This document shows, piece after piece, positions 1,270 through 31,945 of a stretch of DNA of 64,000 bases. Location of the stretch: assembly GCF_015706575.1 (NCBI RefSeq), contig NW_024037073.1, forward strand, positions 20,086,740 through 20,150,739, given 5' to 3'. The number at the start of each line of letters is the position of its first letter. The first letter of the stretch is position 1. The translations under genes and the position numbers were made by a program. Source of the DNA: Patiria miniata. Lineage: Eukaryota. The notes below the pieces were generated by a model. That model was not told where the DNA came from. It made no database searches and saw nothing but the letters and a program-made list of their open reading frames with translations.

Positions 1270-2640
1270 GCAATAAGGTATCCGTGTTAGCCTTTAGTCA
1301 AGTCCACGCGCTTACCCGGACACGTGACACACCCCGGATGCTGACACGTAAAAAGACTAGCACGAGCGGTGAAACCGCGAATTACCATCTCGTGGAGAAC
1401 GCTTATGTTTTTCTTTACATTTGTCTACCGATTTGGTAGCCGAAAATATGGCCAGTTTACTGGACTGCCGCCGTAAACATAGGCCACACATCCGCCATCA
1501 CTGAACCTACTCGGCAAAGTTTTCAAAGTGATTTCCACATTGCGACTTCAGACCCAGTTCATTTATGCTTTAAAAATACACTCACCCTCTTAATAACAAA
1601 GTTTGAACCTGCTTCCAGTGTCAGTTGCCCAGCTGCTGCGTAATTTACGATATTTTCTGGAGCCTTCTTGGCAACTTTTCGGTCCAAATGAACAATGACC
1701 TCGTGCAATACCTGACGGGATACGAACCAATATGTATGGGCGGCCATTAGGGCAAAAAAGACAAAAACAAAAATAAAGCAAAAGCACAAAATTAAACGAA
1801 AACACACAGAAATAAACGAACAACTCAGAAATAAACGAATTTAACTCAGAAATAAACGAACAACTCAGAAATAAACGAACAACTCAGAAATAAACTAACA
1901 ACTCAAAAATAAACGAACAACTCAAAAATAAACGAACAACTCAAAAATAAACGAACAACTCAAAAATAAACGTACAATTCAGAAATAAATAAACAACTCA
2001 AAAATAAACAAACAACTCAGAAATAAACGAACAACTCAAAAATAAACCATCAACTCAGAAATAAACGAAGAACTCAGAAATAAACGAACAACATCCCCAG
2101 GGTGTCGAGCAGCAGTACGCACCCACCATGTACCATACATTACAGAAGTGCAGACGACATAATGTTTACCGCGGCATCCAAGATGGCGGACACTTTGCAT
2201 CGCTTCACGCGATGAACACGGACACATGACGGATGTAGTGGGTTTTCGTCGACGACCTCCGACGCCAAAAAGAAGTCTATGCGAAAGGTAAGCCTGATTA
2301 CAGTTTGATTTTTATGATGGTAAACGTTGACTTTAATCATAAAAGTTTACAATGGCATATCCCGCCGTCATGTCTGTATGTACGTCATGCATGTCATGTG
2401 TACGGCCGGGTTTGGCCGGCCACTGTACTGGCGCGGCGCGCCGGTGCGGTGGACAGACCACGGACCATTAAATGGTCCGTGGTACATGGTCAAACCATCA
2501 GACCGACCATCGAGCTATATCCGAGGTGGAATGATATCCACATCTGGCCATCTCTATTTTTCCCCTTCAGTGACCTATCATGCATCAGAAAGTGTTAATA
2601 TGTCCAAACAAGTAAAATTTAGCTTCGGAAAATATTGAAA
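1270..2640. repeat. Left arm of an inverted duplication whose right arm is 8520-9660, with a ~5.9-kb spacer. A third inverted partial copy lies at 30830-31480.
   Basis: 2095-2300 is the reverse complement of 8840-9060. 1740-1800 is the reverse complement of 9600-9660. 1270-1760 is the reverse complement of 30840-31480. 2380-2470 matches the reverse complement of 8690-8760. Confidence 0.8.
1806..2093 (+). repeat. Tandem array of a 19-bp unit (cagaaataaacgaacaact), about 15 copies.
   Basis: Direct reading. An inverted copy of the same array lies at 9062-9575. Confidence 0.9.
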
Positions 2641-5600
2641 TATTTAGGAAACACTTGGAATAGAAACGTCCAGACCAGTCTCATACGGTTTGTGCACAGG
2701 GATGGCCAGATATGGAATCTTCCCATCATGTTCCCTGCAGTGTTAACAGCCATCAGCTGGAGAACATATTGAAGTATTTACCGAGAGAAAAACGAGGGAG
2801 TGGAGGCAAGGGGGAGGGCGCTGCCCCCCCCCCCCCCAAAAAAAGGAAGAAAAAACAAGAAAAAGGAAACTTAAGAAAAAGAGGTACAAAGTCACATTCG
2901 TGTAAATTTAATGGGGTGGGGGGGGGGGGGCAAAATGTCCCTGCCCCCCTCTAAAACTGATAAATCGAGAATATGTTGAGAAATACAGGATTTTTTTGGG
3001 GGGGGGGGGGAAATATGTTTTACCCCCCAATAGAAAAACAATCATGGCGACGCCTATGTTTGTGCATATACATCATGGTCACTGTTATGGTGATTTCCAG
3101 GTATAAATCTTTTTTCTGGATAGCTTTATGATAGGTGATTGCACTGTGTTTTACTCTACACTGCCACCATCAGTCCCCTGATTACAACTTGATTAAGATC
3201 TCTGTAGGCCTGGTCTTACAGAGTTTGTGATGAGATTTTGGCAACTTTTCATGCTAAACCGTTTCATATATTTTGTCATTTGTCCCAACAGAGTGCAGGA
3301 TATTATGGACAGTGGTCAAGACGGCTACATCAATGATCCAGAAGGAAAAGCAACAGAAACTCAACTGAAAGAAAGCAACTTTAGTCTTGTCTGATAAGTG
3401 CTGCATGCGTTCCACAGCCCATGCCAAGTATGGACTGAAATTCTGGCTGAACTACCAGATCTTAGCTCCATGATACAAGTATGTAGACAGCAGCTGGCAA
3501 CTAGTAGCTGCAGCTCCCTGAATACCTTGTAAAATGGCAAATGCACTGTTAAAGTTATAGAGATTTTTTTATAAGACCCCTGAAAATCCTCAAATACATG
3601 TATGAGAGAAAGTTCACTTGCAATACTGATGAGCATCTATGCAGAGGATTCAATTAGTTTGGAACTTGCTGCAACCCCTGTGTAGGTTGTCATTGAGGAT
3701 TCTGTCTGAGGACTTATTGAGGTGAACAGTCTGTCAAGTGTGAGAGAGGTGACACTAAAGGAAGTGATTCTAGCCAAAAAGGACTGCAACTTTCCTCTGC
3801 AACTGAAGGAATCAAAACCCCTGACGAAGGAGAAATCGAGTTTTACCAAGTCAGTGAAGATGCAGATGGCAGATGGCAGTTGTAGGAGTGCCTTGTTGTG
3901 ACCTTCGAATTTTCACCAATGCCACAGCGATGTGCTCATAGTACAAAAATGTACATGTTTCATTCATTGAGGCATTTTTGAAACCATTGAGGATTCTTCA
4001 ATTTCATAAAGGTCAATGTTTTTCATAAAGGTCAATGTTTTTCATAAAGGTCAATGTTTCACCATATAGCCCAGGGTTTGCAATTTTTATCAAGACACCT
4101 CGCACAAATTTTATTTGGCAAAACTAGTTAATTGGTCTTGTCATAAATGTGATTGCTCTAGTTCAAAGAGTAAAAGTGCATGTACATGTTATTAAAATTA
4201 TATTTTTGACATTAAAATTTTTGTCAACAAATTGCAGACTTTTTAGTCATCTTTAAAAATCTATACTTTTCTATGAATAGTTAGTGCAATTTTAGGTGAA
4301 ATACATTATCTACTAAGCAATTTGTTATCTCCTGAGCTAAATGCGTCATTAAGAATAGGAGCAACTTGACATGTTTCTGTACAAGGATTGGATGTATTTC
4401 ATCAAGTTTGGTTTTCCAACTTCATACAGACGTCACTTGAGACCCTGTATACAACTTTGGGAGTGGTCTGAACATTTCTGTTTTCTCACAAAATTCTTCA
4501 ATGTTTTCCCTGCTATATTTGACTTTTTACGACATGTTATCGCTTTCTGATGGCTGGTAGGTCATTGCAAGGAAAAATTATTGACGTCCTATATGCAATT
4601 CTTTCCTACATGTTCTTGTTATGTTTATTTAGTAGAAGGATTTTTTAAACAACATTTTAAGGTTTCCTTCCACTCTTGAGTTTTAATTTATTGCATTGTA
4701 CTAGACTGGGGCAAGCATTATTTGTGTGTAACTGAAAGAAATTGCCTGAAAAAGTACAATTCACATTTCACAAGTTAATTAAAACCACTGCTTTAATATC
4801 TCATCCAAAAAAAAAAACACATTGTAATGTTAAATTAACAGTTATATTAATATCACTTGTGTTGTAAACATTTTTTTGAGAAGTACACAATGTATACAAT
4901 TGTGCTTTTCAAAATATCATGTATGTACACAAGTTAACCATGCTCAACCTGTAACACTATAATAGCATTTCATGAGATTACACAAACATTTGAACAAAAT
5001 GAACTAAAGGTGTACCATTCTAAATTTTGTGCAAACTATGTGGCATATGTGAACCTTGGTCACTGTTTTTCTAGTGTTCTGATGGTCCCCATGAATATCC
5101 TGATATCTGTTTGACAAAGGTGGGGGACAGGGGTGGGGGCGGAGGCACTGGAGGATGGAACATTTGGTGAATTGGGTGGGGGTGAGGGGGGGGGGAAGTG
5201 TGCAGTTTAAACTTGTGATTGGCTCCTAACACAACTCTCTGTAAAATTTACATGAATCTGCCAAAGATTAAAGACGACAATGCTGTGCTGGAGATCCAGA
5301 AACTTTACTGTGTAATACAACTTCTCCTGATACAGTTTTGTAGTGGTACATATGATGTCAGGCACAGATTGACTACAATAAAATAGAAAATAAAATGTAT
5401 GTATTTGTTACAAGAAATTACCCAGTGTTTGTGTAACCTTATTGTAACAGAATTAGCTCATTACATATCACTTACATGTTCCAAACACATGCACACACAT
5501 GTCCAAAGCAATGTTTATGTAAATACACATGTAGGCCCCTACAATGTACATGTACATGGAGTGAGAGTATCAACTATGGCATAAATCCAGTGTCAGTCCA

Positions 5601-8600
5601 ACAATTTGCATTTATACTAGCTACTCCACATTTAAAGAATACTGAGGTCTACATGCAAGAAGGGTTTATGTACACCCTGTATAAATCTCGACCTGCAGTA
5701 CGTGTGCTTTTAACAGGTTCCACAATACCGTGACTATGCAACCAACAAATGCGTTGAAAATGCAACTTTTAGGCTTATACGGTACTAAATATCACACTAA
5801 TCACTAAATAATTTATAGAAATTGTTTAACAGTAAACAGCGGGATTATTGTTTTGGGCGAAGAATTTAACACACAAGTTGCAAACTCTACAACGCTAAAG
5901 CTATGGAGCACTTGGTTATTGTCTTTCTGGTACAGTGCCCTCACTACTAGGCAAAAAGAAGAAATCTGAGTTTGGCCGCTACATTACATGTATCTAGCAC
6001 TGCATGTATCTATTTAAATTTAATATTTTTTTACAAATATCTGCAGAATAAAATGTAGCACCTCTTTTAGTTTCTGTGTGCGGAAGTTGCACAGTTACAA
6101 TTTACATGACCTCAGGGTTCTCCCCACGTACAAACGTGCGTATCGGCCCGATACGCTGGAATTGTGGCCCGATACGCCGACAAAAATGCCGATCACATTT
6201 TTCAGCCCCCGATACGCACAATATAATTTATTACACAAGCCATTAAAATGCACAACATTATCGTTTCATACGCCATTATTTCATCTTGACATTCAAAATC
6301 TTGACAAAAATCCCGTATTTCTGATGCTGCATGTGTGATCAAAATGCACACGATGACGGGTCTTTCGCGACGACCGCCAGCACCCAGCTATATATTAGCG
6401 CATTCAGCATGGTACACTGGTTCCCTTCGCGTGCTAACAGTATCAATGCTATGATGAAGGACCGGAACCAGTGACTACTGCCTTGCACGTGCATACATGA
6501 TGATTTCGGCCGAAGTTGGATCGTAAAAACACCAAACAAACATCGATGGAGAAAGAGAATTTCTGCAAATTAATTCACAGAACGTGATCTCTATTTTCTG
6601 TGTATGTATTTTCCATTAAAATGACGAGATTGCAAAGCTCGAACGTTTGGCGATCAACATCGTACGCGTAGCATGCTTCTTAGAAGCAGTGGTGCAAAAT
6701 TTTCAGCCACATGGGATGGGCCGTACACAGTTCAGTAATGCACACTGATGCTGCGCCGTGAGCACAGCGCCATGCATGTACAGCCGGCCAGACTGAATGT
6801 TGACGGCGCCAGGGGCCATGATGTACGTTAAACATATTGTGGAATCAACTACCTCAAATATATTTTTAATTAGGTGAGGCAAGTTTTAATCACTTTTGAT
6901 GGTCAGTCAGATGATAATTTTCGTGGTGCAAAGGAAAATAATCCAGGCACAAAACTACATGATTCCTTGTTCAATATGCTCCATTCAATCAAGTGTTTTT
7001 ATTCCTCCATGATTCAATCAGCAGCCCAAAAAATTGGCGAAATAATTTTTCCGACTTACCGACGCTATTTTGAAAGGCATGTAATCGGAAGCAAAAGTGA
7101 TATTTTTCTTCACCTTAATTTCTTAATTTGAAACTTGCTTGTTAATATAATTCATACTTTCTAGATCAGGAAGTTTTAACACAGGTTTTGAAATGTTGAT
7201 TTTTTTTTTTAAGTTAAAAATTTTGATATATTTTTTTCTTTAATTACAAAAAATATCACATGATCTCCTCTAAATTTTAAGGGAAAATCTTCCTCAAAGA
7301 CTCCCCAGATTTGCTCTAAAATGCACCAGAGAGCCTCTAAAGTTCAAAATTTTTCGGGGCCCTTAAGCGGGCCCCGAACCCCACGCCATGGCTTCGCAGG
7401 TTGGTGAATCACAACAAAACTTCCCCCACAGGTTTGAAAAAATCCTGGGGAGAACCCTGCATGTAGAACTGCAAATGTGACATGGATTAGACTTAGAGTG
7501 ACAACAAAGACTAAAAAGTAGGGCCTACATGTACATAATTATACATGTAAGCTACACAGACAAAAAAACTAGGCCTACTTCATTTAGTGAGGGCCAAATA
7601 TTGTAGCATAGCAGCGCACTCTTTGAACGCTTTCTGTAGTTTAGGGGTACCTCCTTTCCAAGAAAATGTCACTGTTTTCCCATTTAACGGTCGCACATGC
7701 TACTGCAACAGACTCAACTCAACCAGCTGATGAGGCTGCATTGGTCTGCTCCCATGAGAAAATGAGGCATAGTAAAGTTGTACATTGTAGTTTCCGCTTC
7801 ATGATTGCTTCTCGGCAGGATCTTGTTTCATCACAGGCTTCCCTTCCATGTTATTAGAATTGTCCTGAAACCAACATTTGAGAGTTACAAATTAATCATC
7901 ATGTTGACATCCTGTTCTGATTACTACCATTACCCTTGTAGTACCCTGTGCAACCAGGGGAACCAAAGAGAACTGATATAAACTGCTGATTTTGTTTAAG
8001 TAAATCCAATTCATTTTTTCCCTTCATTTTCTCTGCTTTCAAACACACAATGCATGATATTTTTTGTGGGTCACCAAAATAATGCAATATGCACACAGCA
8101 GTTCCCAGTTTATTTGGGGTTCACTGAGTATTTCAGGCTAAACAGTTAACTAACCATGTCAATGGCGTATTTGAGAAGCGGTTCGACTGGTGGCAGCGCA
8201 ATCCACAGATCGCGCTCAACATTGATACTAGTACTAGGGGGGCTAGGGGCCTTTTGCGTTTGTACAAATTGTTGCGTAAAGATACTAAAAAAATTCAACT
8301 CGAACTGAAAAATAATGGGTAAAAAGTCTCTTTTATTAGAATTGTGAATAAAATTTTAGAGTCGCGGAAGTCGTTTGATCTTTATAGCGGCAAAATGCTC
8401 AAAAAAATAAACAAGACATATGGACCATGCCCGTCTGGGGAAAGAATTCCTTAGTCTACCTCCATGTCTAGATGGACGTTACTTCGGACCCTGTTACAAA
8501 CCAGTATGATGAAACTGGTCTGAAAAATTGTGTTTTCTCACTAAATATTTCAATATTTTCCCTGCTAAATATCACTTTTTAGGACATGTTCACCGCTTTC

Positions 8601-9061
8601 TGGGGGCTACTACTAGTACTAAGTCATTGCAGGGAAAAACTAGTGGCGTACGTATATGGAATTCTTTCCAGTCTGACCACCGTAGTCATGGCGCAGTGCC
8701 ACGCCGCGCCATCCCAGCCCAGTACATGTGGCCAAACCCGGCCGGCGTTGGCATACCGTTCGTACACATGACGTACAGACTAGGCGTGACGGAATGCAAT
8801 GGTAAACGTAAACAAAGTCAACGTTTTTCATCGTAAAAATTAAACTCCATCCCAGGCTTACCTTTCGCATAGACTTCTTTCTGGCTTTGGAGGTCGTCGA
8901 CGAAAAATCACTACATTTTTACCCTCCGTTTTTTCTAAGTGTTCATCGCGCGTGAAGCGATGCAAGGTACGTGTCCGCCATTTTGGATGCCGCGGTAAAC
9001 ATTATGTCGTACTGTACTGCATGGTACATGGTGGGCGCGTACTGCTGCTCGACACCCTGGG

Positions 9062-9575
9062 GATGTTGTTCGTTTATTTCTGAGTTCTTCGTTTATTTCT
9101 GAGTTGTTCGTTTATTTCTGAGTTCGTATATATTTCTGAGTTGATCGTTTATTTCTGAGTTGATCGTTTAATTCTGAGTTGATGGTTTATTTCTGCGTTG
9201 ATGGTTGTTTTTTAGTTGTTCGTTTATTTCTGAGTTGTTCGTTTATTTCTGAGTTGTTCGTTTAATATTTCTGAGTTGTACGTTTATTTCTGAGTTGTTC
9301 GTTTATTTTTGAGTTGTTCGTTTATTTTTGAGTTGTTGTTTATTTCTGAGTTGTTTGTTTATTTTTTAGTTGTTTATTTATTTCTGAGTTGTACGTTTAT
9401 TTTTTAGTTGTTCGTTTATTTTTGAGTTGTTAGTTTATTTCTGAGTTGTTCGTTTATTTCTGAGTTATATTTGTTTATTCCTGAATTGTTTGTTTATTTC
9501 TGAATTGTTCGTTTATTTCTGAGTTGTTCGTTTATTTCTGAGTTATATTCGTTTATTTCTGAGTTGTTCGTTTAT
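9062..9575 (-). repeat. The same 19-bp tandem array in reverse orientation (gttgttcgtttatttctgagtt), about 25 copies with variants.
   Basis: Reverse complement of the 1806-2093 unit. Flanked by the reverse complement of 2095-2300 at 8840-9060. Confidence 0.9.
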
Positions 9576-9799
9576 TTATGTGTGTTTTCATTTATTTTTG
9601 TAGTTTTGTTTTATTTTTGTTTTTGTCTTTTTTGCCCTAATGGCCGCCCATAAATATGCGGGATCGTTCACCTGTCAATCACGCGCGTACCCGTGCACGA
9701 GGCACCAGAGTGAACCTGGCCGCGTATTCGGCCAGCTACCACAGCCGCGCATTCAGCAGTGTCAGCCGCGTATTCATAAAGTACGGAGGCCAATAAACA

Positions 9800-11565
9800 A
9801 CATTATTGATATGATAAATGTTTATATATTTAATGCGGATTTCATCGAGGAGTGTACCGAAAATGAAGGACGTCAGTATTATGCTTGATGGTCAGTTATT
9901 TAGGTCTCGTGGCTTCCTATAAATTGTTTTGGTTTCAGATCTAGGGCAGCTATGAGTCACGTGATACTTGTCCTGAGAAAAGTCGTACTAAAATAGCATT
10001 TTGCGGTAATTGTACATTTATTAAAACTTAAGTTAAATTTCGAGACAAAGTGTACCAAACAGTGTGGGAGATAAAGTCAAATCGCCGATGGCATCTTAAA
10101 GAGTGGTGTCCCGCCTACACTCTATTTTGGTTTCAGGTGTATGGGGTGTATCTGTCACGTGACAATGGCATAACATATTGGGCTTTCACCGCCAAATTTA
10201 CTCTATTTTATTATATTTAATGCGGATTTCAGGAAAAAGTGTACCGAAAATGCAACATGTCCGAATTATGTTTGATGGTCAGTTATTGAGGACTAGAGGC
10301 TTCCTATAAATTGTTTTGGTTTCAGATCTAGGGCAGCTATGAATCACGTGATACTTTTCCTGAGAAAAATCGTACTAAAATAGCATTTTGCGGTTGAATT
10401 ATGAACAACATTAAACTTAAACTTCGAGACAAAGTGTACCAAACAGTGTAGGAGAAAAATTCAAATCGCCGGTGTCATCGTAAAGAGTGGTGTCCCGCCT
10501 ACACTCTATTTTGGTTTCAGGTGTGTGGGGGTGTATCTGTCACGTGACAATGGCATAACAAAATGGGATTTAACCGCCAAATTTACTTTATTTTATATAT
10601 TTAATGGGGATTTCAGGAAAAAGTGTACCGAAAATGCAACATGTCCGAATTATGTTTGATGGTCAGTTATTGAGGACTCATGGCTTCCTATAAATTATTT
10701 TGGTTTCAGATCTAGGGCAGATATGAATCACGTGATACTCGTCCTGAGAAAAATCGTACTAAAATAGCATTTTGCGGTTGTACAACATTAAACTTTATAA
10801 GTTAAACTTCGAGACAAAGTGTACCAAACAGTGGAGGAGAAAAAGTCAAATCGCCGGTGTCATCTTAAAGAGTGGTGTCCCGCCTACACTCTATTTTGGT
10901 TTCAGGTGTGTGGGGTGAATCTGTCACGTGACAATGGCATAACAAAAGGGCTTTCACCGCCAAATTTACTTTATTTTATATTAATGCGGATTTCAGGAAA
11001 AAGTGTACCGAAAATGCAACATGTCCGAATTATGTTTGATGGTCAGTTATTGAGGACTAGAGGCTTCCTATAAATTGTTTTGGTTTCAGATCTAGGGCAG
11101 CTATGAATCACGTGATACTCGTCCTGGGAAAAGTCGTACTAAAATAGCATTTTCCGGTAACGTTGTACATTTAACTTAAGTTAAACTTCGAGACAAAGTG
11201 TACCAAACAGTGTAGAAGAAAAAGTCAAATCGCCGATGACATCTTAAAGAGTGGTGTCCCGCCTACACTCTATTTTGGTTTCAGGTGTGTGGGGTGTATC
11301 TGTCACGTGACAATGGCATAACATAATGGGCTCTCGCCGCCAAATTTGCTTTATTTTATATATTTAATGCGGATTTCAGGAAAAAGTGTACCGAAAATGC
11401 AACATGTCCGAATTATGTTTGATGTTCAGTTATTGAGAACTAGAGGCTTCCTAGAAATTATTTTGGTTTCAGATCTAGAGCAGCTATGAATCACGTGATT
11501 CTCGTCCTGAGAAAAAAACGTTCTAAAATAGCATTTTACGGTTGTACAACATTAAACTTAACTAG
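9800..11565 (+). repeat. Satellite array with a ~390-bp unit (about 4.5 copies) containing CACGTGAC/TCACGTGAT motifs.
   Basis: Repeated blocks ...tttggtttcagatctagggcagctatgaatcacgtgatactcgtcctgagaaaaatcgtactaaaatagcattttgcgg... More copies at 18905-20625 (+) and 23535-27855 (-). Confidence 0.9.
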
Positions 11566-11630
11566 AGGTTGTAGGAACAACCACACGGTGTTGGGCCATG
11601 GATTACCGCAAACTTACCTTGCATTACGAA

Positions 11631-12233
11631 ACCGGTGTCACGGTCTCACTTCTCCGGCGTGCTAGCTTCTCCGGGTGGATTCGGCGGATAATTGAGCACG
11701 TCACAGTGCACGTTACACGAGCACGATTCATGCTCATGTGTCCGCTGTGCTTACTTTTCCTCGGGCTGTATTCATGAAGTCTACAAAGCCCATACACAGT
11801 GAGGTACTCCCAAGAATGTGTTATGTAACACTTCCTGTGGGTCAAGTCATTCCATGGTCTTGCATTTGTTGCAAGCGTTCTGATTTATGTTCCCAGCGTC
11901 ATGCATGTGTGTGTGTTCATGGAGGAATAATTAAGAACGAACTCCTTGATCTGTGTTCCTTGCTCGTTCATGGTCCACTTTGTCCGCTTTATTTTTGGTT
12001 ATTGGGAGTTATAATAGTGCGCGCCACGAAAAGTTTGGATTGGACTGGTACCCTGTAACCATGCATACAAATATCCTAAGATCTTACGTGCACCAGTACA
12101 ACCCCAAAGAACTCAGCACACTAAATACAGTTGACGAAAATGTACACTACTGCGCAATTTTGTGCATGCGTGTTGAAGAGAAATTTCCCTTTCGGAGAAG
12201 CTAGCACGCCGGAGAAGTGAGACCGTGACACCG
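11631..12233. mobile_element. ~600-bp non-autonomous element bounded by 41-bp terminal inverted repeats (ccggtgtcacggtctcacttctccggcgtgctagcttctcc).
   Basis: 11631-11672 is the exact reverse complement of 12193-12233. No transposase ORF. No clear target-site duplication seen. Confidence 0.6.
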
Positions 12234-12699
12234 GCTCTCTTAAGAAAGTGGCTAGTTTCACACTGTTGAAAGCCCCTGGGGAGCCCTTAAGTAAATTAAA
12301 CTCCCCTCCCTGCTCCACAGTCCCAGCGAGATAATGCCTTGTGGTTAAATGAAATACCACCTGTTAGCCACACTGATTTCTGGAACTATACTTTCTGGTG
12401 AATTGCGGTTTTATGCTAGCATAACAGTAACAGATCGTTCTCAGCCATTTATTGACGGATTTCCACATTTCAACATATAAAACAAGTTAACATTTCAGGT
12501 ACGTCATTATGATAATACAATTTGTTGGCCGACAGATTAAATTTAGCAACCAAATATTATGCTTGAAATCTCTCAGGCAGAGTGACCTTTGCTCCTTTTA
12601 GGAACCAATTATAGAATAAGTGCTTATAAATATCTTAATCCCCTAGGGCAGGCTCCCCAAAATGATGTGTCCCTACCCGAGTTGCCTACATAGCTGGTC

Positions 12700-18900: not shown

Positions 18901-18904
18901 CAAC

Positions 18905-20625
18905 ACCTAATAAGTTAAACTTCGAGACAAAGTGTACCAAACAGTGTAGAAGAAAAAGTCAAATCGCCGATGACATCTTAAAGAGTGGTGTCCCGCCTAC
19001 ACTCTATTTTGGTTTCAGGTGTGTGGGGGTGTATCTGTAACGTGACAATGGCATAACAAAATGGGCTCTCACCGCCAAATTCACTTTATTTTATATATTT
19101 AATGCGGATTTCAGGAAAACGTGTACCGAAAATGCAACATGTCCGAATTATGTTTGATGGTCAGTTATTGAGAACTAGAGGCTTCCTACAAATTATTTTG
19201 GTTTCAGATCTAGGGCAGCTATGAATCACGTGATACTCGTCCTGAGAAAAATCGTACTAAAATAGCATTTTGCGGTTGTACAACATTAAACTTATTGTTA
19301 ACTTCGAGACAAAGTGTACCAAACAGTGTAGAAGAAAAAGTCACGTGACAATGGCATAACAAATGGGCTCTCACCGCCAAATTTACTTTATTTTATATAT
19401 TTAATGCGGATTTCAGGAAAAAGTGTACCGAAAATGCAACATGTCCAAATTATGTTTGATGGTCAGTTATTGAGGACTAGAGGCTTCCTACAAATTATTT
19501 TGGTTTCAGATCTAGGGCAGCTATGAATCACGTGATACTCGTCCTGAGAAAAATCGTACTAAAATAGCATTTTGCGGTTGTACAACATTAAACTTATTGT
19601 TAACTTCGAGACAAAGTGTACCAAACAGTGTAGAAGAAAAAGTCGAATCGCCGATGTCATCTTAAAGAGTGGTGTCCCGCCTACACTCTATTTTGGTTTC
19701 AGGTGTATGGGGTGTATTTTGTCACGTGACAATGGCATAACATAATGCGCTTTCACCGCCAAATTTATTTAATGCGGATTTCAGTAGAAAGTGTACCGAA
19801 AACACAACATGTTCAAATTATGTTTGATGGTCAGTTATTGAGGACTAGAGGCTTCCTATAAATTATTTTGGTTTCAGATCTAGGGCAGCTATGAATCACG
19901 TGATACTCGTCCTGAGAAAAGTCGTACTAAAATAGCATTTTACGGTAACGTTGTACATTTAACTTAAGTTAAACTTCGAGACAAAGTGTACCAAACAGTG
20001 TAGAAGAAAAAGTCGAATCGCCGATGTCATCTTAAAGAGTGGTGTTCCGCATACACTCTATTTTGGTTTCAGGTGTGTGGGGTGTATCTGTCACGTGACA
20101 ATGGCATAACATAATGCGCTTTCACCGCCAAATTTACTTTATTTATATATTTAATGCGGATTTCAGTAGAAAGTGTACCGAAAATGCCACATGTTCAAAT
20201 TATGTTTGATGGTCAGTTATTCAGGACTAGAGGCTTCCTATGAACTATTTTGGTTTCAGATCTAGGGCAGCTATGAATCACGTGATACTCGACCTTAGAA
20301 AAATCGTACTAAAATAGCATTTTGCGGTTGTACAACATTAAACTTAAGTTAAACTTCGAGACAAAGTGTACCAAACAGTGTAGGAGAAAAAGTCGAATCG
20401 CCGATGGCATCTTAAAGAGTGGTGTCCCGCCTACACTCTATTGTGGTTTCAGGTTGTGGGGTGTATCTGTCACGTGACAATGGCATAACAAAATGGGCTT
20501 TCACCGCCAAATTTACAATTATTTTATATATTTAATGCAGATTTCAGGAAAAAGTGTACCGAAAATGCAACATGTCCGAATTATGTTTGATGGTCAGTTA
20601 TTGAGGACTATAGGCGTCCTATAAA
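18905..20625 (+). repeat. Second block of the ~390-bp satellite, about 4.4 copies.
   Basis: Same unit as 9800-11565. Begins right after a perfect hairpin at 18891-18914. Confidence 0.9.
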
Positions 20626-20879
20626 TGTTGTACATGCTGCAAAAGGTGATCTGTTTTCCAGATAGATAATTTATGTTATTCAACGAATTTTTCAAAATAA
20701 ACGACAAATATCAATATTTTTCTATGGTGTATCAGAGTTCACAATATAAGCAGCCATGTCGTCAACGAGTTTTGAAAATTTGATGCAATAATTACTTAGA
20801 AATTAACTGCTTAATGCGAATCATCACATTTAATATAATTTTTGAACGCTTTTAGAGATGTTGAAAAATAATGCATCAT

Positions 20880-23215
20880 TTAAAACAAAGTGTACCTCAC
20901 ATGTTGTCAAAAAAACATAATTTTATTGCATAATCTACGAGATCATGTGACTGGGCACGCTTAATTTTGGTATTGGCTTCAGCCGAGCACTAATTAGTGC
21001 CTAATTAGCCTCTTAAAGTGACCCCATTTTCCAGGCACTATGAGAATGCATTCTTTTCAACTGCGTATATCACTGCTTCTTTAAAACAAAGTGTACCTCA
21101 TATTATGTTGCCAAAAACTTGCAGTTTTATTTCATAATCTACGAGATCATAATTATCACTGGACACACTTTAATTTTGGTATTGGCTTCATCCAAGGACT
21201 AATTAGTGCCTAATTGGCCCCTTAAAGTGACCCCATTTTCCCGGCACTATCAGCATGCATTCTTTTCAACTGCATACATCACTGCTCCTTTAAAACAAAG
21301 TATACCTCACATGTTGTCAAAAACTCATCATTTTATTGCATAATCTACGAGATCATGTGACCGGGCACACTTAATTTTGGTATTGGCTTCATCCAAGGAC
21401 TAATTAGTGACTAATTGGCCCCTTATTAAAGTGACCCAATTTTCCCAGCACTATCAGCATGCATTCTTTTCAACTGCATACATCACTGCTCCTTTTAAAC
21501 AAAATAAAGTGTGCCCAGTCACATGATCTCGTAGATTATACAATAAAATGTTTTTGCCAACTTGTGAGGTACACTTTGTTTTAAAGGAGCAGTGATGTAT
21601 GCAGTTGAAAAGAATGCATTCTGAAAGTGCCGCGAAAATGGGGTCACTTTAAGGGGCTAATTATGCACTAATTAGTCCATGGATGAAGCCAATACCAAAA
21701 TTAAGCGTGCCCAGTCACATGATCTCGTAGATTATGCAATAAAATTATGAGTTTTTCATAACATGTGAAGTACACTTTGTTTTAAAGGAGCAGTGATGTA
21801 CGCAGTTGAAAAGAATGCATGCTGATAGTGCCGGGAAAATTGGGCCACTTTAAAGGACCAATTAGGCAATAATTAGTGCTTGGATGAAGCCAATACCAAA
21901 ATTAAGTGTGCCCGGTGATATGATCTCGTAGATTATGCAATATAATTATGAGTTTTTGACAACATGTGAGGTACACTTTGTTTTAAAGGAGCAGTGATAT
22001 ACGCAGTTGAAAAGAATGCATTCTGAAAGTGCCGCGAAAATAGGGTCATTTTAAGGGGCTAATTATGCACTAATTAGTCCATGGATGAAGCCAATACTAA
22101 AATTAAGTGTGCCCGGTGACATGATCTCGTAGATTATGCAAACAAAGTATGAGTTTTTTACAACATGTGAAGTACACTTTGTTTTAAAGGAGCAGTGATA
22201 TACGCAGTTGAAAAGAATGCAATCTGATAGTGCCGGAAAATTGAGTCACTTTAAGGGGCCAAATAAGCACTAATTAGTCCTTGGATGAAGCCAATACCAA
22301 AATTAAGTGTGCCCAGTGATATGATCTCGTAGATTATGAAATAAAACTGCAAGTTTTTGACAACATGTGAGGTACACTTTGTTTTAAAGGAGCAGTGATA
22401 TAAGCAGTTGAAAAGAATGCATGCTGATAGTGCTGGGAAAATTGGGTCACTTTAAGGGGCTAATTAGGCACTAATTAGTACTTGGATGAAGCCAATACCG
22501 AAATTGAGTTTGCCCAGTGATATGATCTCGTAGATTATGCAATAAAATTATGAGTTTTTGACAACATGTGAGGTACACTTTGTTTTAAGGACCTGTGATG
22601 TATGCAGTTGAAAAGAATGCATGCTGATAGTGCCTTGAAAATTGGGTCAATTTAAGGGGCTAATTAGTCATTAATTAGTGCTTGGATGAAGCCAATGCCA
22701 GAATTAAGTGTACCCAGCGATATGATCTCGTAGATTATGAAATAAAACTGCGTGTTTTTGGCAACATGTAAGGTACACTTTGTTTTAAATAAGCAGTGAT
22801 ATACGCAGCAGAAACGAAGGCATTACAATAGTGCAGTAAAATAGCGTCGCTTTAACGGGCTAATTAGGCACTAATTAGTTTTCGGCTCGAGCTGATACCA
22901 AAATTAAGTGTGCCCAGTCGCATGATCTCGTAGATTAAGCAATAAAATGATGAGTTTTTGACAATTTGTGAGGCACACTTTGTTTAAAAGGAGCAGTGAT
23001 ATACGCAGTTGAAAAGAATGCATTCTCATAGTGCCTGGAAAATGGGGTCACTTTTAATAAGGGGCTAATTTAGGCACTAATTAGTGCTCGGCTGAAGCCA
23101 ATACCAAAATTAAGCGTGCCCAGTCACATAATCTCGTAGATTAAGCAATAAAATTATGAGTTTTCGACAACATGTGAGGTACACCTTGTTTTAAATGATG
23201 CATTTACTTTTCTCT
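20880..23215. repeat. ~190-bp satellite in a head-to-head palindrome: + orientation 20880-21500 (~3 units), - orientation 21510-23215 (~9 units). Symmetry centre about 21505.
   Basis: Unit ...aaagtgtacctcacatgttgtc...tacgagatcatgtgaccgggcacacttaattttggtattggcttcatccaaggactaattagtgcctaattggcc... switches to its reverse complement at ~21500. Unique flanks 20625-20880 and 23215-23460 are reverse complements of each other. Confidence 0.9.
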
Positions 23216-23534
23216 AAAAGCGTTTGAAAATTACGTTAAATGTGATGATTCCCATTAAGCAGTTAATTTCTAAGTAATTATTGCATCAAATTTTCAAAAC
23301 TCGTTGACGACATGGTTGCTTATATTGTGAACTGTGATACAGCGTAGAAAAATATTGATATTTGTCGTTTATTTTGAAAAATTCGTTGAATAAAATAAAT
23401 TATCTATCTGGAAAACAGATCACCTTTTGCAGCATGTATTATAGATTTTTTTACTTTTGGTGAATGCGCGGCTGAATACGCGGTTGAATACGCGGCTAAA
23501 ATCCGGCCGAATCCGCGGTAACCTTGAGCCAAGT

Positions 23535-26500
23535 ACTATTTGGTACACTTTGTCTCAAAGTTGGGCATAATAATATTTAACCGCAAACTGCTATATTTTA
23601 GTACGAATTTTCCCAGGACGAGTATCACGTGACTCATAGCTGCCCTAGATCTGAAACCAAAATAATTTATAGGAAGCCTCTATTCCTCAATAACTGACCA
23701 TCAAACATAATCCGGACATGTTGCATTTTCGGTACACTTTTTCCTGAAATTCGCACTAAATATAAAATAAATGTCAATTTGGCGGTGAAAGCCCATTTTG
23801 TTATGCCATTGTCACGTGACAGATACGACCCACACACTTGAAACCAAAATAGAGTGTAGGTGGACTTTTTCCCCGACACTGTTTGGTACACTTTGTCTTA
23901 AAGTTTATGTTATTTAACCGCAAACTGCTTTTTTTAGTACGAATTTTCTCAGGACGAGCATCACGTGACTCATAGCTGCCCTAGATCCGAAACCAAAATA
24001 ATTTATAGGAAGCCTCTAGTCCTCAATAACTGACCATCAAACATAATCTGGACATGTGGCATTTTCGGTACACTTTTTCCTGAAATCCGCATTAAATTTA
24101 TAAAATAAAGTTAATTTGGCGGTAAAGGCGCATTTTGGTATGCCATTGTCACGTGACAGATACACCCCACACACCTGAAACCAAAATAAAGTGTATGCAG
24201 GCTACCACTCTATAAGATGTTATCGGCGATTTGACTTTTTCTCCTACACTGTTCGGTACACTTTGTCTCGAAGTTTAACTTAAAGTTTAATGTTGTACTA
24301 CCGCAAAATGCTATTTTAGTACGATTTTTCTCAGGACGTGTATCACGTGATTCATAGCTGCCCTAGATCTGAAACCAGAATAATTTATAGGAAGCCTCTA
24401 GTTCTCAATAACTGACCATCAAACATAATTCGGACATGTTGCATTTTCGGTACACTTTTTCCTGAAATCCGCATTAAATATATAAAATAAAAAGTAAATT
24501 TGGCGGTGAGAGCCGATTTTGATATGCCATTGTCACGTGACAGATACACCCCACACACCTGAAACCAAAATAGAGTGTAGGCGGGCTACCACTCTATTAA
24601 AGATGTTATCGGCGATTTGACTTTTTCTCCTACACTGTTCGGTACACTTTGTCTCGAAGTTTAACTTAAAGTTTAATGTACTACCGCAAAATGCTATTTT
24701 AGTACGATTTTTCTCAGGACGTGTATCACGTGATTCATAGCTGCCCTAGATCTGAAACCAAAACAATTTATAGGAAGCCTCTAGTTCTCAATAACTGACC
24801 ATCAAACATAATTCGGACATGTTGCATTTTCGGTACACTTTTTCCTGAAATCCGCATTAAATATATAAAATAAAGTAAATTTGGCGGTGAGAGCCCATTT
24901 TGTTATGCCATTGTCACGTGACAGATACACCCCACACACCTGAAACCAAAATAGAGTGTAGGCGGGACACCACTCTTTAAGATGTCATCGGCGATTTGAC
25001 TTTTTCTTCTACACTGTTTGGTACACTTTGTCTCGAAGTTTAACTTATAAAGTTAAATGTACAACGTTACCGCAAAATGCCATTTTAGTACGACTTTTCT
25101 CATGAGTATCACGTGATTCATAGCTGCCCTAGATCTGAAACCAAAATAATTTATAGGAAGCCTCTAGTTCTCAATAACTGACCATCAAACATAATTCGGA
25201 CATGTTGCATTTTCGGCACACTTTTTCCTGAAATCCGCATAAAATATATAAAATAAAGTAAATTTGGCGGTGAGAGCCCATTTTGTTATGCCATTGTCAC
25301 GTGACAGATACACCCCACACACCTGAAACCAAAATAGAGTGTAGGCGGGACACCACTCTTTAAGATGTCATCGGCGATTTGACTTTTTCTTCTACACTGT
25401 TTGGTACACTTTGTCTCGAAGTTTAAGTTTAATGTTGTTCATAATTCAACCGCAAAATGCTATTTTAGTACGATTTTTCTCAGGAAGAGTATCACGTGAT
25501 TCATAGCTGCCCTAGATCTGAAACCAAAACAATTTATAGGAAGCCTCTAGTCCTCAATAACTGACCATCAAACATAATTCGGACATGTTGCATTTTCGGT
25601 ACACTTTTTCCTGAAATCCGCATAAAATATATAAAATAAAGTAAATTTGGCGGTGAGAGCCCATTTTGTTATGCCATTGTCACGTGACAGATACACCCCA
25701 CACACCTGAAACCAAAATAGAGTGTAGGCGGGCTACCACTCTATAAGATGTCATCGGCGATTTGACTTTATCTCCTACACTGTTCGGTACACTTTGTCTC
25801 GAAGTTTAACTTAATAAGTTAAATGTACAACGTTACCGCAAAATGCTATTTTAGTACGACTTTTCTCAGGACGAGTATCACGTGATTCGTAGCTGCCCTA
25901 GATCTGAAACCAAAATAATTTATAGGAAGCCTCTATCTAGTTCTCAATAACTGACCATCAAACATAATTCGGACATGTTGCATTTTCGGTACACTTTTTC
26001 CTGAAATCCGCATTAAATATATAAAATAAAGTAAATTTGGCGGTGAGAGCCCATTTTGTTATGCCATTGTCACGTGACAGATACACCCCACACACCTGAA
26101 ACCAAAATAGAGTGTAGGCGGGACACCACTCTTTAAGATGTCATCGGCGATTTGACTTTTTCTTCTACACTGTTTGGTACACTTTGTCTCGAAGTTTAAC
26201 TTATAAAGTTAAATGTACAACGTTACCGCAAAATGCTATTTTAGTACGACTTTTATCAGGACGTGTATCACCTGATTCATAGCTGCCCTAGATCTGAAAC
26301 CAAAATAATTTATAGGAAGCCTCTAGTTCTCAATAACTGACCATCAAACATAATTCGGACATGTTGCATTTTCGGTACACTTTTTCCTGAAATCCACATA
26401 AAATATATAAAATAAAGTAAATTTGGCGGTGAGAGCCCATTTTGTTATGCCATTGTCACGTGACAGATACACCCCACACACCTGAAACCAAAATAGAGTG

Positions 26501-27855
26501 TAGGCGGGACACCACTCTTTAAGATGTCATCGGCGATTTGACTTTTTCTTCTACACTGTTTGGTACACTTTGTCTCGAAGTTTAACTTATAAAGTTAAAT
26601 GTACAACGTTACCGCAAAATGCCATTTTAGTACGACTTTTCTCATGAGTATCACGTGATTCATAGCTGCCCTAGATCTGAAACCAAAATAATTTATAGGA
26701 AGCCTCTAGTTCTCAATAACTGACCATCAAACATAATTCGGACATGTTGCATTTTCGGCACACTTTTTCCTGAAATCCGCATAAAATATATAAAATAAAG
26801 TAAATTTGGCGGTGAGAGCCCATTTTGTTATGCCATTGTCACGTGACAGATACACCCCACACACCTGAAACCAAAATAGAGTGTAGGCGGGACACCACTC
26901 TTTAAGATGTCATCGGCGATTTGACTTTTTCTTCTACACTGTTTGGTACACTTTGTCTCGAAGTTTAAGTTTTATGTTGTTCAACCGCAAAATGCTATTT
27001 TAGTACGATTTTTTCTCAGGACGAGTATCACGTGATTCATAGTTGCCCTAGATCTGAAACCACAATAATTTGTAGGAGGCCTCTAGTCCTCAATAACTGA
27101 CCATCAAACATAATTCGGACATGTTGCATTTTCGGCACACTTTTTCCTGAAATCCGCATAAAATATATAAAATAAAGTAAATTTGGCGGTGAGAGCCCAT
27201 TTTGTTATGCCATTGTCACGTGACAGATACACCCCACACACCTGAAACCAAAATAGAGTGTAGGCGGGACACCACTCTTTAAGATGTCATCGGCGATTTG
27301 ACTTTTTCTTATACACTGTTTGGTACACTTTGTCTCGAAGTTTAAGTTTTATGTTGTTCAACCGCAAAATGCTATTTTAGTACGATTTTTTCTCAGGACG
27401 AGTATCACGTGATTCATAGTTGCCCTAGATCTGAAACCACAATAATTTGTAGGAGGCCTCTAGTCCTCAATAACTGACCATCAAACATAATTCGGACATG
27501 TTGCATTTTCGGCACACTTTTTCCTGAAATCCGCATAAAATATATAAAATAAAGTAAATTTGGCGGTGAGAGCCCATTTTGTTATGCCATTGTCACGTGA
27601 CAGATACACCCCACACACCTGAAACCAAAATAGAGTGTAGGCGGGACACCACTCTTTAAGATGTCATCGGCGATTTGACTTTTTCTTCTACACTGTTTGG
27701 TACACTTTGTCTCGAAGTTTAAGTTTTATGTTGTTCAACCGCAAAATGCTATTTTAGTACGATTTTTTCTCAGGACGAGTATCACGTGATTCATAGTTGC
27801 CCTAGATCTGAAACCACAATAATTTGTAGGAGGCCTCTAGTCCTCAATAACTGAC
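23535..27855 (-). repeat. ~390-430-bp satellite in reverse orientation, about 10 copies. Forms the right arm of the large palindrome.
   Basis: Reverse complement of the 9800-11565 and 18905-20625 units. Followed by 27856-28050, the reverse complement of 9690-9900. Confidence 0.9.
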
Positions 27856-29419
27856 CATCAAACATAATACTGACGTCCTTCATTTTCGGTACACTCCTCG
27901 ATGAAATCCGCATTAAATATATAAAAATTTATCACATCAATAATGTTGTTTATTGGCCTCCGTACTTTATGAATACGCGGCTGAATACACGGCTGAATAC
28001 GCGGCTGTGGTATCTGGCCGAATACGCGGCCAGGTTCACTCTGGTGCACGACCCACGCCGCAGGCCTGGTGGTAGTCTGGTTCCCAGGCCTGACAATTAT
28101 TCCCGACGCTCACGTCTAAATAAGGCTGCATCCGAATTAACTGTCTAGAGCTAGGTCTAGGTCCACGCCACTGATCTCTATAATTATAAAGACTGGATAG
28201 CGGATATGCATACAACATTCACACAGTAGACTTTGCATATTGACCAATTCGCCCCCGGTCTCACGAAGATGGCCGCGTATAATACGAACGTTCTACGCGT
28301 AAATACGCGCGCGTTGTATCAACAGTTGACGCGCATTTTGGTCACGTACACATATTATGATGTTCTAAAAGGAACACATTTCCGTAGTGATTATTATTTC
28401 AAAAACGCCGAAAAAGTGATTTGCGGCATTATAATAGTATAACCACTACGTTAGAAAAATTGTTGTAAACCTTGGTCAGTTGGTCAGTGGTGGTGGCCAA
28501 AATATAAGTCAAGTGAGCCGCGACGTTACAAAAGAAATCAAGCTGTCTAAAAAAGACGGCAACTTGTCCTTTGTATCTCACCAGCCGGTCTCACCAATAT
28601 GGCGTCAAATTCGTACATTGTGCGGCTCTTTATTAGCTATCCAGTCTTTATATAGAGATCAGTGGTCCACGCCCATCCGGTTCGTTAGTATAAAAAAAAA
28701 AAGACGCGCACCCACCACTGATTACTAGCGTCCATTGGCTACAAACGCTCGAGCTGCGTTAACTTCCGGTTCCAATCGTGCAGAAAGTGCTGGAGGTGAC
28801 GTCACACTAACGAACCGGATTGAAAATACGTGAGAACGCGCTGACAATAGACTTTATAGCCGTAGCTCTGAAGCCCGTTTCGGACACGGCCTCATCAACC
28901 CAACCTCGTCCCCAGGGTGTCGAGCAGTACGCGCCCACCACTACCTGCTCTCTCACCCTGGTATTGGATCATTTGCATGTGCAAGATTTTTGCACACGTA
29001 TGCAAATGAGGAACAGTCAGGTGCCTGGATATGCGTTACACATTAGCGTTTGTTTTTGTATGCGGTGTCTGGGGTAAAAACAGAGTCAATTCGTAGCAGC
29101 GCGAGCACGGTGTGAGTTACGAAAACACGATTTCTGAAATCAAACTGTTACGATCTTATTGAGACAACATGCAGTATCATATTTCATATTAATATGAGCA
29201 AATTGGAAAGGAAATTAGTATTTTCGAGAAGGCGTGGACGATGATGATCGCGAAAACACGTACTGCACGTTGTGAATATATAGCACCAAGTACACGATAA
29301 AAATCCATTACTAGCCAATTGCGGTATCCAATGAGGATACAGGAAGAAAGTTTCCTATCCAGGGTTTACTATTGGAAACGTACGAAAGCCCATTAGCGCC
29401 ACTGCAAGTATATATGTTA

Positions 29420-30670
29420 CAGCTTATGTAATTCGTTATTACGGATTATTAATTCGTTATTACGGATTACTTAATTCGTTATTACGGATTATTAATTCGT
29501 TATTACGGATTACTTAATTCGTTATTACGGATTATTAATTCGTTATTACGGATAATTAATTCGTTATTACGGATTATTTAATTCGTTATTACGGATTATT
29601 AATTCGTTATTACGGATTACTAATTCGTTATTACGGATTATTAATTCGTTATTACGGATTACTTAATTCGTTATTACGGATTATTAATTCGTTATTACGG
29701 ATTATTAATTCGTTATTACGGATTATTTAATTCGTTATTACGGATTATTAATTCGTTATTACGGATTACTAATTCGTTATTACGGATTATTTAATTCGTT
29801 ATTACGGATTATTAATTCGTTATTACGGATTAAGTCTGATGTTCTCACACGTAGAGAGCACGTGACCAGGGGCCTATGTATATAGCGCCGCTAGGCGGCG
29901 CTATCTTTGCATACAACGTTTGCTTTACACCGGCACCACTCCTGTGCCATACTTGCCGAGTAATGACTCAGAACGTATGAGTAATTCGTAATAACGAATT
30001 AATAATCCGTAATAACGAATTAAATAATCCGTAATAACGAATTAGTAATCCGTAATAACGAATTAAATAATCCGTTATAACGAATTAATAATCCGTAATA
30101 ACGAATTAATTAATCCGTAATAACGAATTAATAATCCGTAATAACGAATAAATAATCCGTTATAACGAATTAATAATCCGTTATTACGAATTAGTAATCC
30201 GTAATAACGAATTAAATAATCCGTTATAACGAATTAATAATCCGTAATAACGAATTAATTAATCCGTAATAACGAATTAATAATCCGTAATAACGAATTA
30301 ATAATCCGTTATAACGAATTAATAATCCGTTATTACGAATTAGTAATCCGTAATAACGAATTAAATAATCCGTTATAACGAATTAATAATCCGTAATTAC
30401 GAATTAATTAATCCGTAATAACGAATTAATAATCCGTAATAACGAATTAATAATCCGTAATAACGAATTAAATAATCCGTTATAACGAATTAGTAATCCG
30501 TAATAACGAATTAAATAATCCGTAATAACGAATTAATAATCCGTTATAACGAATTAGTAATCCGTTATAACGAATTAAATAATCCGTAATAACGAATTAA
30601 TAATCCGTTATAACGAATTAGTAATCCGTAATAACGAATTAATAATCCGTAATAACGAATTAAATAATCT
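29420..30670. repeat. Palindromic tandem array of a ~22-bp unit (ttaattcgttattacggatta): + orientation 29420-29830, unique centre 29830-29985, - orientation 29985-30670.
   Basis: Direct reading. Flanks 29330-29420 and 30670-30760 are also mutually inverted. Confidence 0.9.
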
Positions 30671-31639
30671 GCAACATATATACTTGCAGTGGCGCTAATG
30701 GGCTTTCGTAGAAACGCCGTTGGAAATAAAGTAAGTACTGGGGACGAGGTTGTCATCAACCATCATCAGGAATAGTCAGAATCTTTTGGTCTGGGAACTG
30801 GACTACCACCGGGCCTGCGGCGTGCCTTGGCACGCGTGATTGACAGGTGAACGATCCCTGCATATTGGTTCGTATCCCGTCAGGTATTGCGCGAGGTCAT
30901 TGTTCAGTTGGACCGAAAAGTTGCCAAGAAGGCTCCAGAAAATATCGTAAATTATGCAGCAGCTGGGCAACTGACACTGGAAGCAGGTTCAAACTTTGTT
31001 ATTAAGAGGGTGAGTGTATTTTTAAAGCATAAATGAACTGGGTCTGAAGTCGCAATGTGGAAATCACTTTGAAAACTTCGCCGAGTAGGTTCAGTGATGG
31101 CGGATGTGTGGCCTATGTTTACGGCGGCAGTCCAGTAAACTGGCCACATTTGGGGCTACTGATTTGGTAGACATGCGTAATGCATTACCCGTTGTGAATT
31201 GACCAATGAAAATGCAGAATTACTAACGTAAATCAGCCGTCGTCTGGCGCCAGACAGCACGCGTGCCATGGCGCGGGTGCTGTTGCTGGTAACCGCAAAC
31301 CACCGTTAGATGATTGGTTTATATTGCTTGATTTATATTATTACGTGAATAAATGAATAAGTGATTAGTTCCACGAGATAGTAAAGGCCCTCGCGGTTTC
31401 GCCGCTCGTGCTAGTCTTTTTACGTGCCAGCCTCCGGGGTGCGTTACGTGTCCGGATGGTCCGGGTATAGGCGCGTGGGACTTGACTAAAGGCTATATCC
31501 GTGTAGGCACCTGCGACAGCTGAAGTGCACAAAATCTTGCAGGTCAATCCAGAAAACCAATCCAGAAAACGAGATAAAAAAATAATTTTGGATGTCCCTC
31601 TAGGGGCTCCGTAACTTCATAAAACTCCGTAACTCCGTA

Positions 31640-31945
31640 AAATGTATCTCATAAAAACGAACTTCGAGAAAATGTATCTCATAAAAACGAACTTCGAGAA
31701 AATGTATCTCATAAAAACGAACTTCGAGAAAATGTATCTCATAAAAACGAACTTCGAGAAAATGTATCTCATAAAAACGAACTTCGAGAAAATGTATCTC
31801 ATAAAAACGAACTTCGACAAAATGTATCTCATAAAAACGAACTTCGACAAAATGTATCTCATAAAAACGAACTTCGACAAAATGTATCTCATAAAAACGA
31901 ACTTCGGACAAAATGTATCTCATAAAAACGAACTTTGACAAAATA
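31640..31945 (+). repeat. Minisatellite of a 30-bp unit (aaaatgtatctcataaaaacgaacttcgag), 10 copies.
   Basis: Perfect and near-perfect tandem copies. The six-frame ORFs here show repeating decapeptides, a repeat artefact. Confidence 0.95.

Follow-up and report, generated by a model that had tools for sequence, protein, structure and literature searches.

Most foldback elements have been assigned to the Mutator superfamily of DNA transposons (PMC4079207), and MULE transposases generate target-site duplications (TSDs) of 8–11 bp (PMC6446971). Tetris, a non-autonomous element of Drosophila virilis, has terminal inverted repeats (TIRs) divided into flanking, outer (220-bp tandem repeats) and inner domains, creates TSDs of 8–10 bp, lacks open reading frames (ORFs), and contains TIR repeats that have expanded into satellite DNA (PMC4079207). 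The Mutator/Phantom-related element Tm1 of root-knot nematodes likewise has TIRs built of tandem repeats, with arms of unequal length, a mean identity of ~93% between the TIRs of one element and TSDs that are mostly 9 bp (PMC3169594). Galileo, a P-superfamily element of Drosophila buzzatii and D. mojavensis, is described in the Tetris study as having long, internally repetitive, foldback-like TIRs whose tandem repeats carry extra transposase-binding sites (PMC3688188, PMC3573991, via PMC4079207). Here we analyzed a 64-kb window (the complete 64,000-nucleotide stretch from Patiria miniata contig NW_024037073.1) in which a palindromic, satellite-rich block occupies positions 1288–31495. This block is probably a single non-autonomous foldback-type (FB-like) DNA transposon, the insertion of which duplicated 9 bp. 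It is referred to below as the outer element, and it contains two smaller foldback elements, FB1 and FB2.

Repeats were mapped with Tandem Repeats Finder (TRF) and by self-BLAST of the window, which returned high-scoring segment pairs of 300–3700 bp, far above chance. The parts of the outer element, in order from left to right, are as follows.

1279–1287: left TSD, 9 bp, TATCCGTGT, abutting the left terminus.
1288–31495: outer foldback-type element, 30,208 bp, ~12.2 kb net of nested insertions, with arms collinear from the termini to the centre.
1288–1734 (+): terminal (flanking) domain A of the left arm, resuming at 9659–9701 past FB1; 93.6–95.6% identical to the inverted 30860–31495.
9702–9820 (+): leader F of the left arm, 12-mers of the GCCGCGTATTCA type; 96.5% identical to the inverted 27930–28047.
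9821–11561 (+): 384-bp satellite, left arm part 1, 4.5 units, stopping at monomer phase 211 (TRF, phase map).
18911–20629 (+): 384-bp satellite, left arm part 2, stopping at phase 108 (TRF, phase map).
20631–21503 (+): left inner domain, a 241-bp leader and ~3 units of the 200-bp satellite; 87% identical to the inverted 23438–22579.
21504–21574: palindrome centre, symmetry point 21539, an imperfect inverted repeat of the 200-bp monomer, AAGTGTGCCCAGTCACATG ... CTTGTGAGGTACACTT.
21575–23438 (−): right inner domain, ~8 units of the 200-bp satellite and leader.
23439–23534 (−): F-like leader in the right arm only, between the 384-bp and 200-bp modules, TGAATACGCGGC three times.
23535–27929 (−): 384-bp satellite, right arm, ~11.5 units.
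27930–28047 (−): leader F′ of the right arm, mirror of 9702–9820.
30825–31495 (−): terminal domain A′ of the right arm, containing the empty site for FB1.
31496–31504: right TSD, 9 bp, TATCCGTGT, the same 9-mer in direct orientation.

The ends of the block are exact and can be read directly. The sequence TAGCCTTTAGTCAAGT (for a survey of further copies, TAGCCTTTAGTCAAGTCC plus domain A) forms the inverted termini at 1288–1303 (+) and 31480–31495 (−). Immediately outside them stands the 9-mer TATCCGTGT, which has just these two occurrences in the window when both strands are searched. A 9-bp match at fixed positions has a chance probability of 4^-9 (~4e-6), and beyond the duplication the left and right flanks are unrelated. 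Because identical inverted ends are bracketed by a direct 9-bp repeat, the block was interpreted as one transposon insertion, and the duplication lies inside the 8–11-bp range of the Mutator superfamily. An empty allele of the locus is predicted to read ...GCAATAAGG TATCCGTGT AGGCACCTGCG..., i.e. the site GCAATAAGGTATCCGTGTAGGCACCTGCG. A terminus-like 16-mer at 23519 matches the terminus at 13 of 16 bases; since 0.6 such matches are expected, it was taken as chance.

Once FB1, the right-arm insertion E2 with FB2, and a 7.35-kb insertion are removed, both arms have the same module order from the outside inward: A, F, 384-bp array, leader and 200-bp array. Identity between the arms was 93.6% at the A terminus, 95.6% in the A core, 94% in A beyond FB1, 96.5% in leader F and 95.3% in the leader of the 200-bp array; the right copy of domain A is ~165 bp longer than the left. 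Since the single-copy modules are equally diverged (93.6–96.5%), they are best explained as parts of one unit, not as several events of different age. An earlier sequence-only reading of this DNA had proposed successive inverted duplications, a history that does not fit this uniform divergence; the nesting is that of transposons within a transposon, each with its own TSD. The inverted arrangements on which that proposal was built were all recovered by TRF and self-BLAST with small shifts in coordinates. The inverted copy of 1270–1760 is 1288–1734 against 30860–31495, and the mirrored flank placed at 9690–9900 is 9702–9820 against 27930–28047. The mirrored 390-bp satellite is indeed present on both strands, with a period of 384 bp. 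The orientation flip assigned to a 190-bp satellite at ~21505 is real, and belongs to a repeat of ~200 bp with its symmetry point at 21539. The arms placed at 1270–2640 and 8520–9660, which contain 19-bp arrays, are inverted as claimed, although their true bounds are 1735–2701 and 8489–9652, to the exclusion of 1270–1735. A fourth flip had been missed, that of a 21-bp array at 29417–29832 (+) and 29982–30669 (−).

The outer element resembles the foldback class in that inverted arms make up nearly all of its length, in that these arms are modular with tandem subrepeats, and in having a TSD directly outside both termini, as do FB1 and FB2 (9 bp for the outer element, 6 bp for each of the others). 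Its nearest analogues are Tetris, FB and Tm1. Modular TIRs, repeats of variable number, a similar TSD length and a motif common to different domains are all shared with Tetris, in which the TIRs reach ~1.7 kb around a middle domain, whereas the arms here have net lengths of 5 and 7 kb with nothing between them. Unlike Tetris, each arm contains two repeat families (384 and 200 bp). The likeness is structural, with no sequence similarity expected, and the hosts differ, being a marine invertebrate in one case and an insect in the other. FB and Tm1 elements share with the outer element composite tandem-repeat TIRs, unequal arms and inserted elements, and many of their copies have no transposase. 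Galileo differs in encoding a P-type transposase and in its TIRs of ~1 kb, whereas the outer element has no coding sequence. Indeed, no ORF longer than ~130 aa was found in the left 37 kb of the window, and a Pfam scan of every ORF of at least 50 aa outside the arrays in 1–37.5 kb found no domain, including no MULE-type DDE domain. Rfam and tRNA scans gave no match in the palindrome region, and the left 37 kb as a whole contained no Rfam family.

The two arms meet within a satellite monomer. The central ~70 bp is an imperfect inverted repeat (AAGTGTRCC...CACATG) that is found in every 200-bp monomer, and thus the outer element has no separate middle domain. Single-stranded DNA of 21440–21640 was predicted to fold strongly (ΔG −65.6 kcal/mol, z = −14), in agreement with the cruciform potential previously ascribed to the block. 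This centre, with its symmetry point exactly in the monomer-internal inverted repeat and its strong predicted fold, would also be produced if a one-sided A-F-384-200 block had been duplicated in situ, by folding back through the inverted repeat of the 200-bp monomer after a break or at a stalled fork, with transposons arriving later. The uniform identity of ~95% between the unique modules of the arms is likewise what a single duplication would leave. Such an origin does not account, however, for two arms that terminate at exactly one nucleotide position of A, and leaves unexplained the presence of the same 9-mer in direct orientation at both ends, with unrelated flanks beyond. It was considered unlikely, and a transposed foldback element is preferred.

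The satellite arrays of the arms have changed in length. There are ~9 units of the 384-bp repeat in the left arm and ~11.5 in the right, so that the inequality proposed earlier was correct and the counts of about 4 and 10 were not; the 200-bp repeat has ~3 units on the left and ~8 on the right. Unequal copy number of this kind is a further trait of foldback arms (~9 vs 11.5 and 3 vs 8 in the outer element, 17 vs 29 in FB1, 19.5 vs 32 in FB2). Mean identity among 384-bp monomers was 92.2% for pairs from the left arm, 94.5% for pairs from the right and 92.7% for pairs with one monomer from each, and no monomer-by-monomer mirror orthology between the two 384-bp arrays was detected past the outermost unit. 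In the right array, stretches of 572, 403 and 376 bp recur exactly, at offsets of 1,542, 754 and 377 bp, respectively. Exact repeats of this length (376–572 bp) indicate recent in-situ amplification, which accounts for the unequal copy numbers. The extra F-like leader at 23439–23534 suggests that the arm modules are cassettes, each consisting of a leader plus an array.

Each 384-bp unit consists of two ~190-bp halves, an old dimer whose parts have since diverged (z ~6.6). The 10-mer AAAGTGTACC is common to the 200-bp and 384-bp repeats, with 43 exact copies confined to the arrays at a spacing of ~190 bp, always in + orientation in the left arm and − in the right. Homology between the two repeats was dropped as a candidate, as they could not be aligned past a common 10–12-mer. 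The additional transposase-binding sites of Galileo offer a possible analogy for a 10-mer at this spacing; no claim is made for AAAGTGTACC as a terminal binding motif, as it is absent from domain A. That absence means that the arrays need no recognition by a transposase, and would be in keeping with composite or alternative transposition, in which two opposite A-ended elements (or the ends of sister chromatids) were used jointly and the satellites were passengers. A composite transposon would also be expected to carry a 9-bp TSD around inverted identical ends. The interior, however, is itself a full palindrome, collinear with the ends as far as the centre, which is the definition of a foldback element and not of a passenger, and joint use of two elements is accordingly judged improbable. 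The outer element is better regarded as one foldback unit, into which the following elements have been inserted.

1735–9652: FB1, 7,918 bp, with TIRs at 1735–2701 and 8489–9652 and a non-coding middle of ~5.8 kb.
1729–1734 and 9653–9658: TSD of FB1, 6 bp, AATATG.
11562–18910: compound insertion, 7.35 kb, splitting one 384-bp monomer, with TAA duplicated at its ends.
28054–30824: E2, 2,771 bp, with 37-bp terminal inverted repeats CACGCCGCAGGCCYGGTGGTAGTC..., in the right arm only.
29381–30710: FB2, 1,330 bp, a foldback element nested in E2.
29375–29380 and 30711–30716: TSD of FB2, 6 bp, GAAACG.

The termini of FB1, TATGGGCGGCCATTAGGGC, are a perfect 19-bp inverted pair at 1735 (+) and 9652 (−). 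Each TIR consists of a short unique end, a tandem array of a 19-bp repeat (1757–2092 with 17 copies and 9065–9631 with 29 copies) and a non-repetitive inner part of ~600 bp; the TIRs are ~1.0 and ~1.2 kb long, and their identity is 84–88% in the outer 600 bp and falls inward to ~2701 and ~8489. FB1 is bordered to its left by ...ACGAACCAATATG and to its right by AATATGCGGGATCG..., the two parts of a single unbroken stretch. The second copy of A, on the − strand near 30860, keeps the empty site CCAATATGCAGGGATCG intact; it reads ACGAACCAATATGCAGGGATCG, with the target CCAATATGCAGGG uninterrupted. FB1 is a transposon insertion, given its 6-bp duplication and the empty site kept in the paralogous arm, and together these features are direct evidence of foldback transposition in the genome studied here. 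The TU elements of sea urchins, also marine deuterostomes, are foldback elements with tandem-repeat outer and non-repetitive inner domains, a build that resembles FB1; these sea-urchin elements are cited in the Tetris study (Liebermann et al. 1983, via PMC4079207).

FB2 is built of 21-bp arrays at 29417–29832 (+, 19.5 copies) and 29982–30669 (−, 32 copies) that face each other across a loop of ~140 bp, and ends in the inverted termini TACGAAAGCCCATTAGCGCC at 29381 (+) and 30710 (−). Within the loop, at 29870–29905, is a G+C-rich perfect hairpin, ATAGCGCCGC-TAG-GCGGCGCTAT. The FB1 and FB2 termini have 13 of 19 bases in common, including CCATTAG, and the motif TAYGN5CCATTAGSGC is found in the window at the four ends of these two elements and nowhere else (0.04 occurrences expected). 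Judged by these sequence features, namely arms of short repeats, 6-bp duplications and TAYG..CCATTAG termini, FB1 and FB2 appear to be one second foldback family. Because their duplications fall outside 8–11 bp, they should not be filed under the Mutator superfamily. The ~14-bp repeats of Tm1 are closer to those of FB1 and FB2 than to those of the outer element, but the TSDs differ (6 bp vs mostly 9 bp in FB and Tm1) and no FLYWCH/MULE transposase was found in the window. For E2, no clean TSD was found; the arms differ by indels at the site.

The 7.35-kb segment at 11562–18910 is an insertion into a single array, since the 384-bp array breaks off at phase 211 on one side of it and continues from phase 209 on the other; the left-arm insertion of about 7 kb recognized earlier was thus upheld. 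It includes at least four copies of a MITE-like repeat of 0.5–0.75 kb that terminates in a hairpin (GGTGTTGGGC..GCCCAACACC), and at 16983–17730 a 13-bp unit (TTGTTGATGTTGA) is repeated in tandem over ~750 bp. The hairpin, TTAGGTGTTGGGC-N3-GCCCAACACCTAA, adjoins TAA/TTA, and the repeat has the appearance of a PIF/Harbinger-type MITE. This insertion also contains an inverted repeat of 42 bp with perfectly matching arms (11632–11673 / 12193–12234). Satellite arrays borne by Helitrons or Helentrons, as in bivalves, have neither TIRs nor TSDs, and the elements begin with 5′-TC, end in CTRR-3′ and carry a hairpin at the 3′ end. In the 7.35-kb insertion CTAA does follow a hairpin, at the right end only, and the 5′ end is not TC. 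An array carried by a Helitron or Helentron was rejected, as the outer element, like FB1 and FB2, has inverted termini and duplications.

These insertions also bear on whether the palindrome exists in the genome. Chimeras typically take the form of inverted repeats around a very short spacer, and the block might in principle have arisen during assembly from a foldback chimeric read or a collapsed repeat. The arms of such a chimera would be expected to be nearly identical, equal in copy number and free of features peculiar to one arm. The two arms, however, differ by 4–13% and in copy number, FB1 and the 7.35-kb insertion are present in the left arm only and E2 with FB2 in the right only, with intact duplications, and the flanking 9-mers match. 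An artefact is scarcely credible on this evidence. The sequence-only reading had likewise taken the block for a real nested palindrome, and arms that are 87–96% identical, with unequal copies and arm-specific insertions that have duplications of their own, bear this out.

The block had also been regarded as characteristic of centromere-proximal DNA, that is, as a heterochromatic satellite palindrome formed by successive inverted duplications. Several satellite families do switch orientation inside 30 kb, as such an origin would have it. Against it, the arrays measure only 0.3–4.4 kb (none exceeds 4.4 kb), and are not the long homogeneous arrays of tens of kb to Mb in gene-poor sequence that are expected of such palindromes; the orientation flips fall within units that have their own termini and TSD; and the divergence of the big arms is uniform. 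The window is animal nuclear DNA of ~40% G+C with expressed-looking genes in its right half: a tocopherol-cyclase-like ORF, a mosaic gene with LDLa, TSP1 and trypsin domains, and exons of mitochondrial malate dehydrogenase (MDH). The nearest gene start, that of the tocopherol-cyclase-like ORF at 38.1 kb, is 6.6 kb past the right end of the block, with more genes beyond. A centromere-proximal satellite block bounded by a 9-bp duplication and this close to genes is very improbable, and the claim was not sustained.

Several observations nevertheless weigh against a single foldback transposon. The outer element was seen in one copy, so that the 9-bp repeat is the whole of the evidence for its mobility; searches of the window and of the available metagenome, viral and protein collections turned up neither a second copy nor an empty site. 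Conserved 25–26-mers taken from domain A and from the 384-bp monomer had no match among metagenome and viral contigs, collections that probably do not include this animal. A 90-aa ORF running through the 384-bp satellite was searched against protein databases for spurious ORF calls in other assemblies and gave no candidate. The window yielded no transposase. With its 30 kb (12 kb net), the element far exceeds the published foldback elements compared here. The position of the centre at a monomer-internal inverted repeat would fit an in-situ fold-back duplication as well, and, with the extra F-like leader of the right arm, the module content of the arms is not strictly identical.

If the outer element is a foldback transposon, the following history can be proposed. 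A transposase encoded elsewhere in the genome would bind the terminal domains and would cut and paste the whole hairpin-like unit, thereby duplicating the 9 bp TATCCGTGT at the target. We infer from the length of the duplication that an enzyme of the Mutator/Phantom type may have acted in trans; what moved may have been the full-size unit or a smaller ancestor. After insertion, or partly before it, array lengths would have been shifted by unequal exchange and local amplification. Four other mobile elements (FB1, FB2, the 2.8-kb TIR element E2 and the 7.35-kb compound insertion) entered the unit. Under this model the apparent satellites would be transposon-borne repeats that are portable to new loci and expand there.

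Other features were noted in the window outside the outer element. A 30-bp array (31639–31948; 10.3 copies, 98% identical) follows the outer TSD on its right side, at a distance of 135 bp. Further right, a 221-bp satellite forms two blocks in the same orientation, 34480–35833 and 36710–37124, separated by 877 bp. The first 168 bp of this spacer (35830–35997) match 715–882, 400 bp to the left of the outer element, in direct orientation with 82% identity. Possibly the 221-bp region is a further transposon-associated array, and the insertion site of the big element lay in or near it.

The tocopherol-cyclase-like locus at 38115–40008 (−) comprises two ORFs of 221 and 201 aa with ~55% G+C, compared with ~40% around it, and a run of 38 G between them; the 221-aa ORF matches Pfam Tocopherol_cycl (PF14249; E = 2.3e-11). 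For an animal, a tocopherol-cyclase-like gene of deviant composition is an unusual find, and horizontal acquisition is possible. The homopolymers G38 (39068–39105) and C39 (62395–62433) pair up as an inverted match. The MDH exons have a best identity of 76–78%, and the best named matches of the trypsin exons are echinoderm proteins at ~40% identity. Contig L001 (ENA ERZ26222911), positions 1819–12135, is syntenic with 43–51 kb of the window; nucleotide identity was 76–81% in the LDLa and trypsin exons, and the introns showed no similarity. This contig derives from a different organism, the nearest relative of the source species among the data searched. A tRNA-Met-like sequence at 57573–57647 lies within a repeat of ~200–300 bp that has three copies in the gene-rich half, with others at 47087–47272 and 48184–48369, and looks like a tRNA-derived SINE family.

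A further, rather doubtful proposal is that the outer element records the joint birth of a foldback transposon and its satellites. A one-ended array would have folded back at the inverted repeat of its monomer, yielding a palindrome with two identical transposase-recognized ends that could move and seed 384-bp and 200-bp loci, and FB1 and FB2 would represent a foldback lineage with a non-Mutator, possibly undescribed, transposase.

With the ends assigned here, an apparently exotic 30-kb satellite palindrome becomes annotatable as four nested transposons with exact ends. It is noteworthy for its size (30 kb, 12 kb net), for the two satellite-type families in each arm and for clean nested examples with an empty site. 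The exact termini and the empty-site sequences can serve as probes for copy counts, for an autonomous partner and for insertion polymorphism. Elements of this kind are likely sites of hairpin formation and ectopic recombination beside genes. The locus offers a case outside insects and nematodes of 384-bp and 200-bp satellite-type repeats as structural parts of a foldback transposon, and the route from transposon to satellite DNA that has been proposed for Tetris fits this example.

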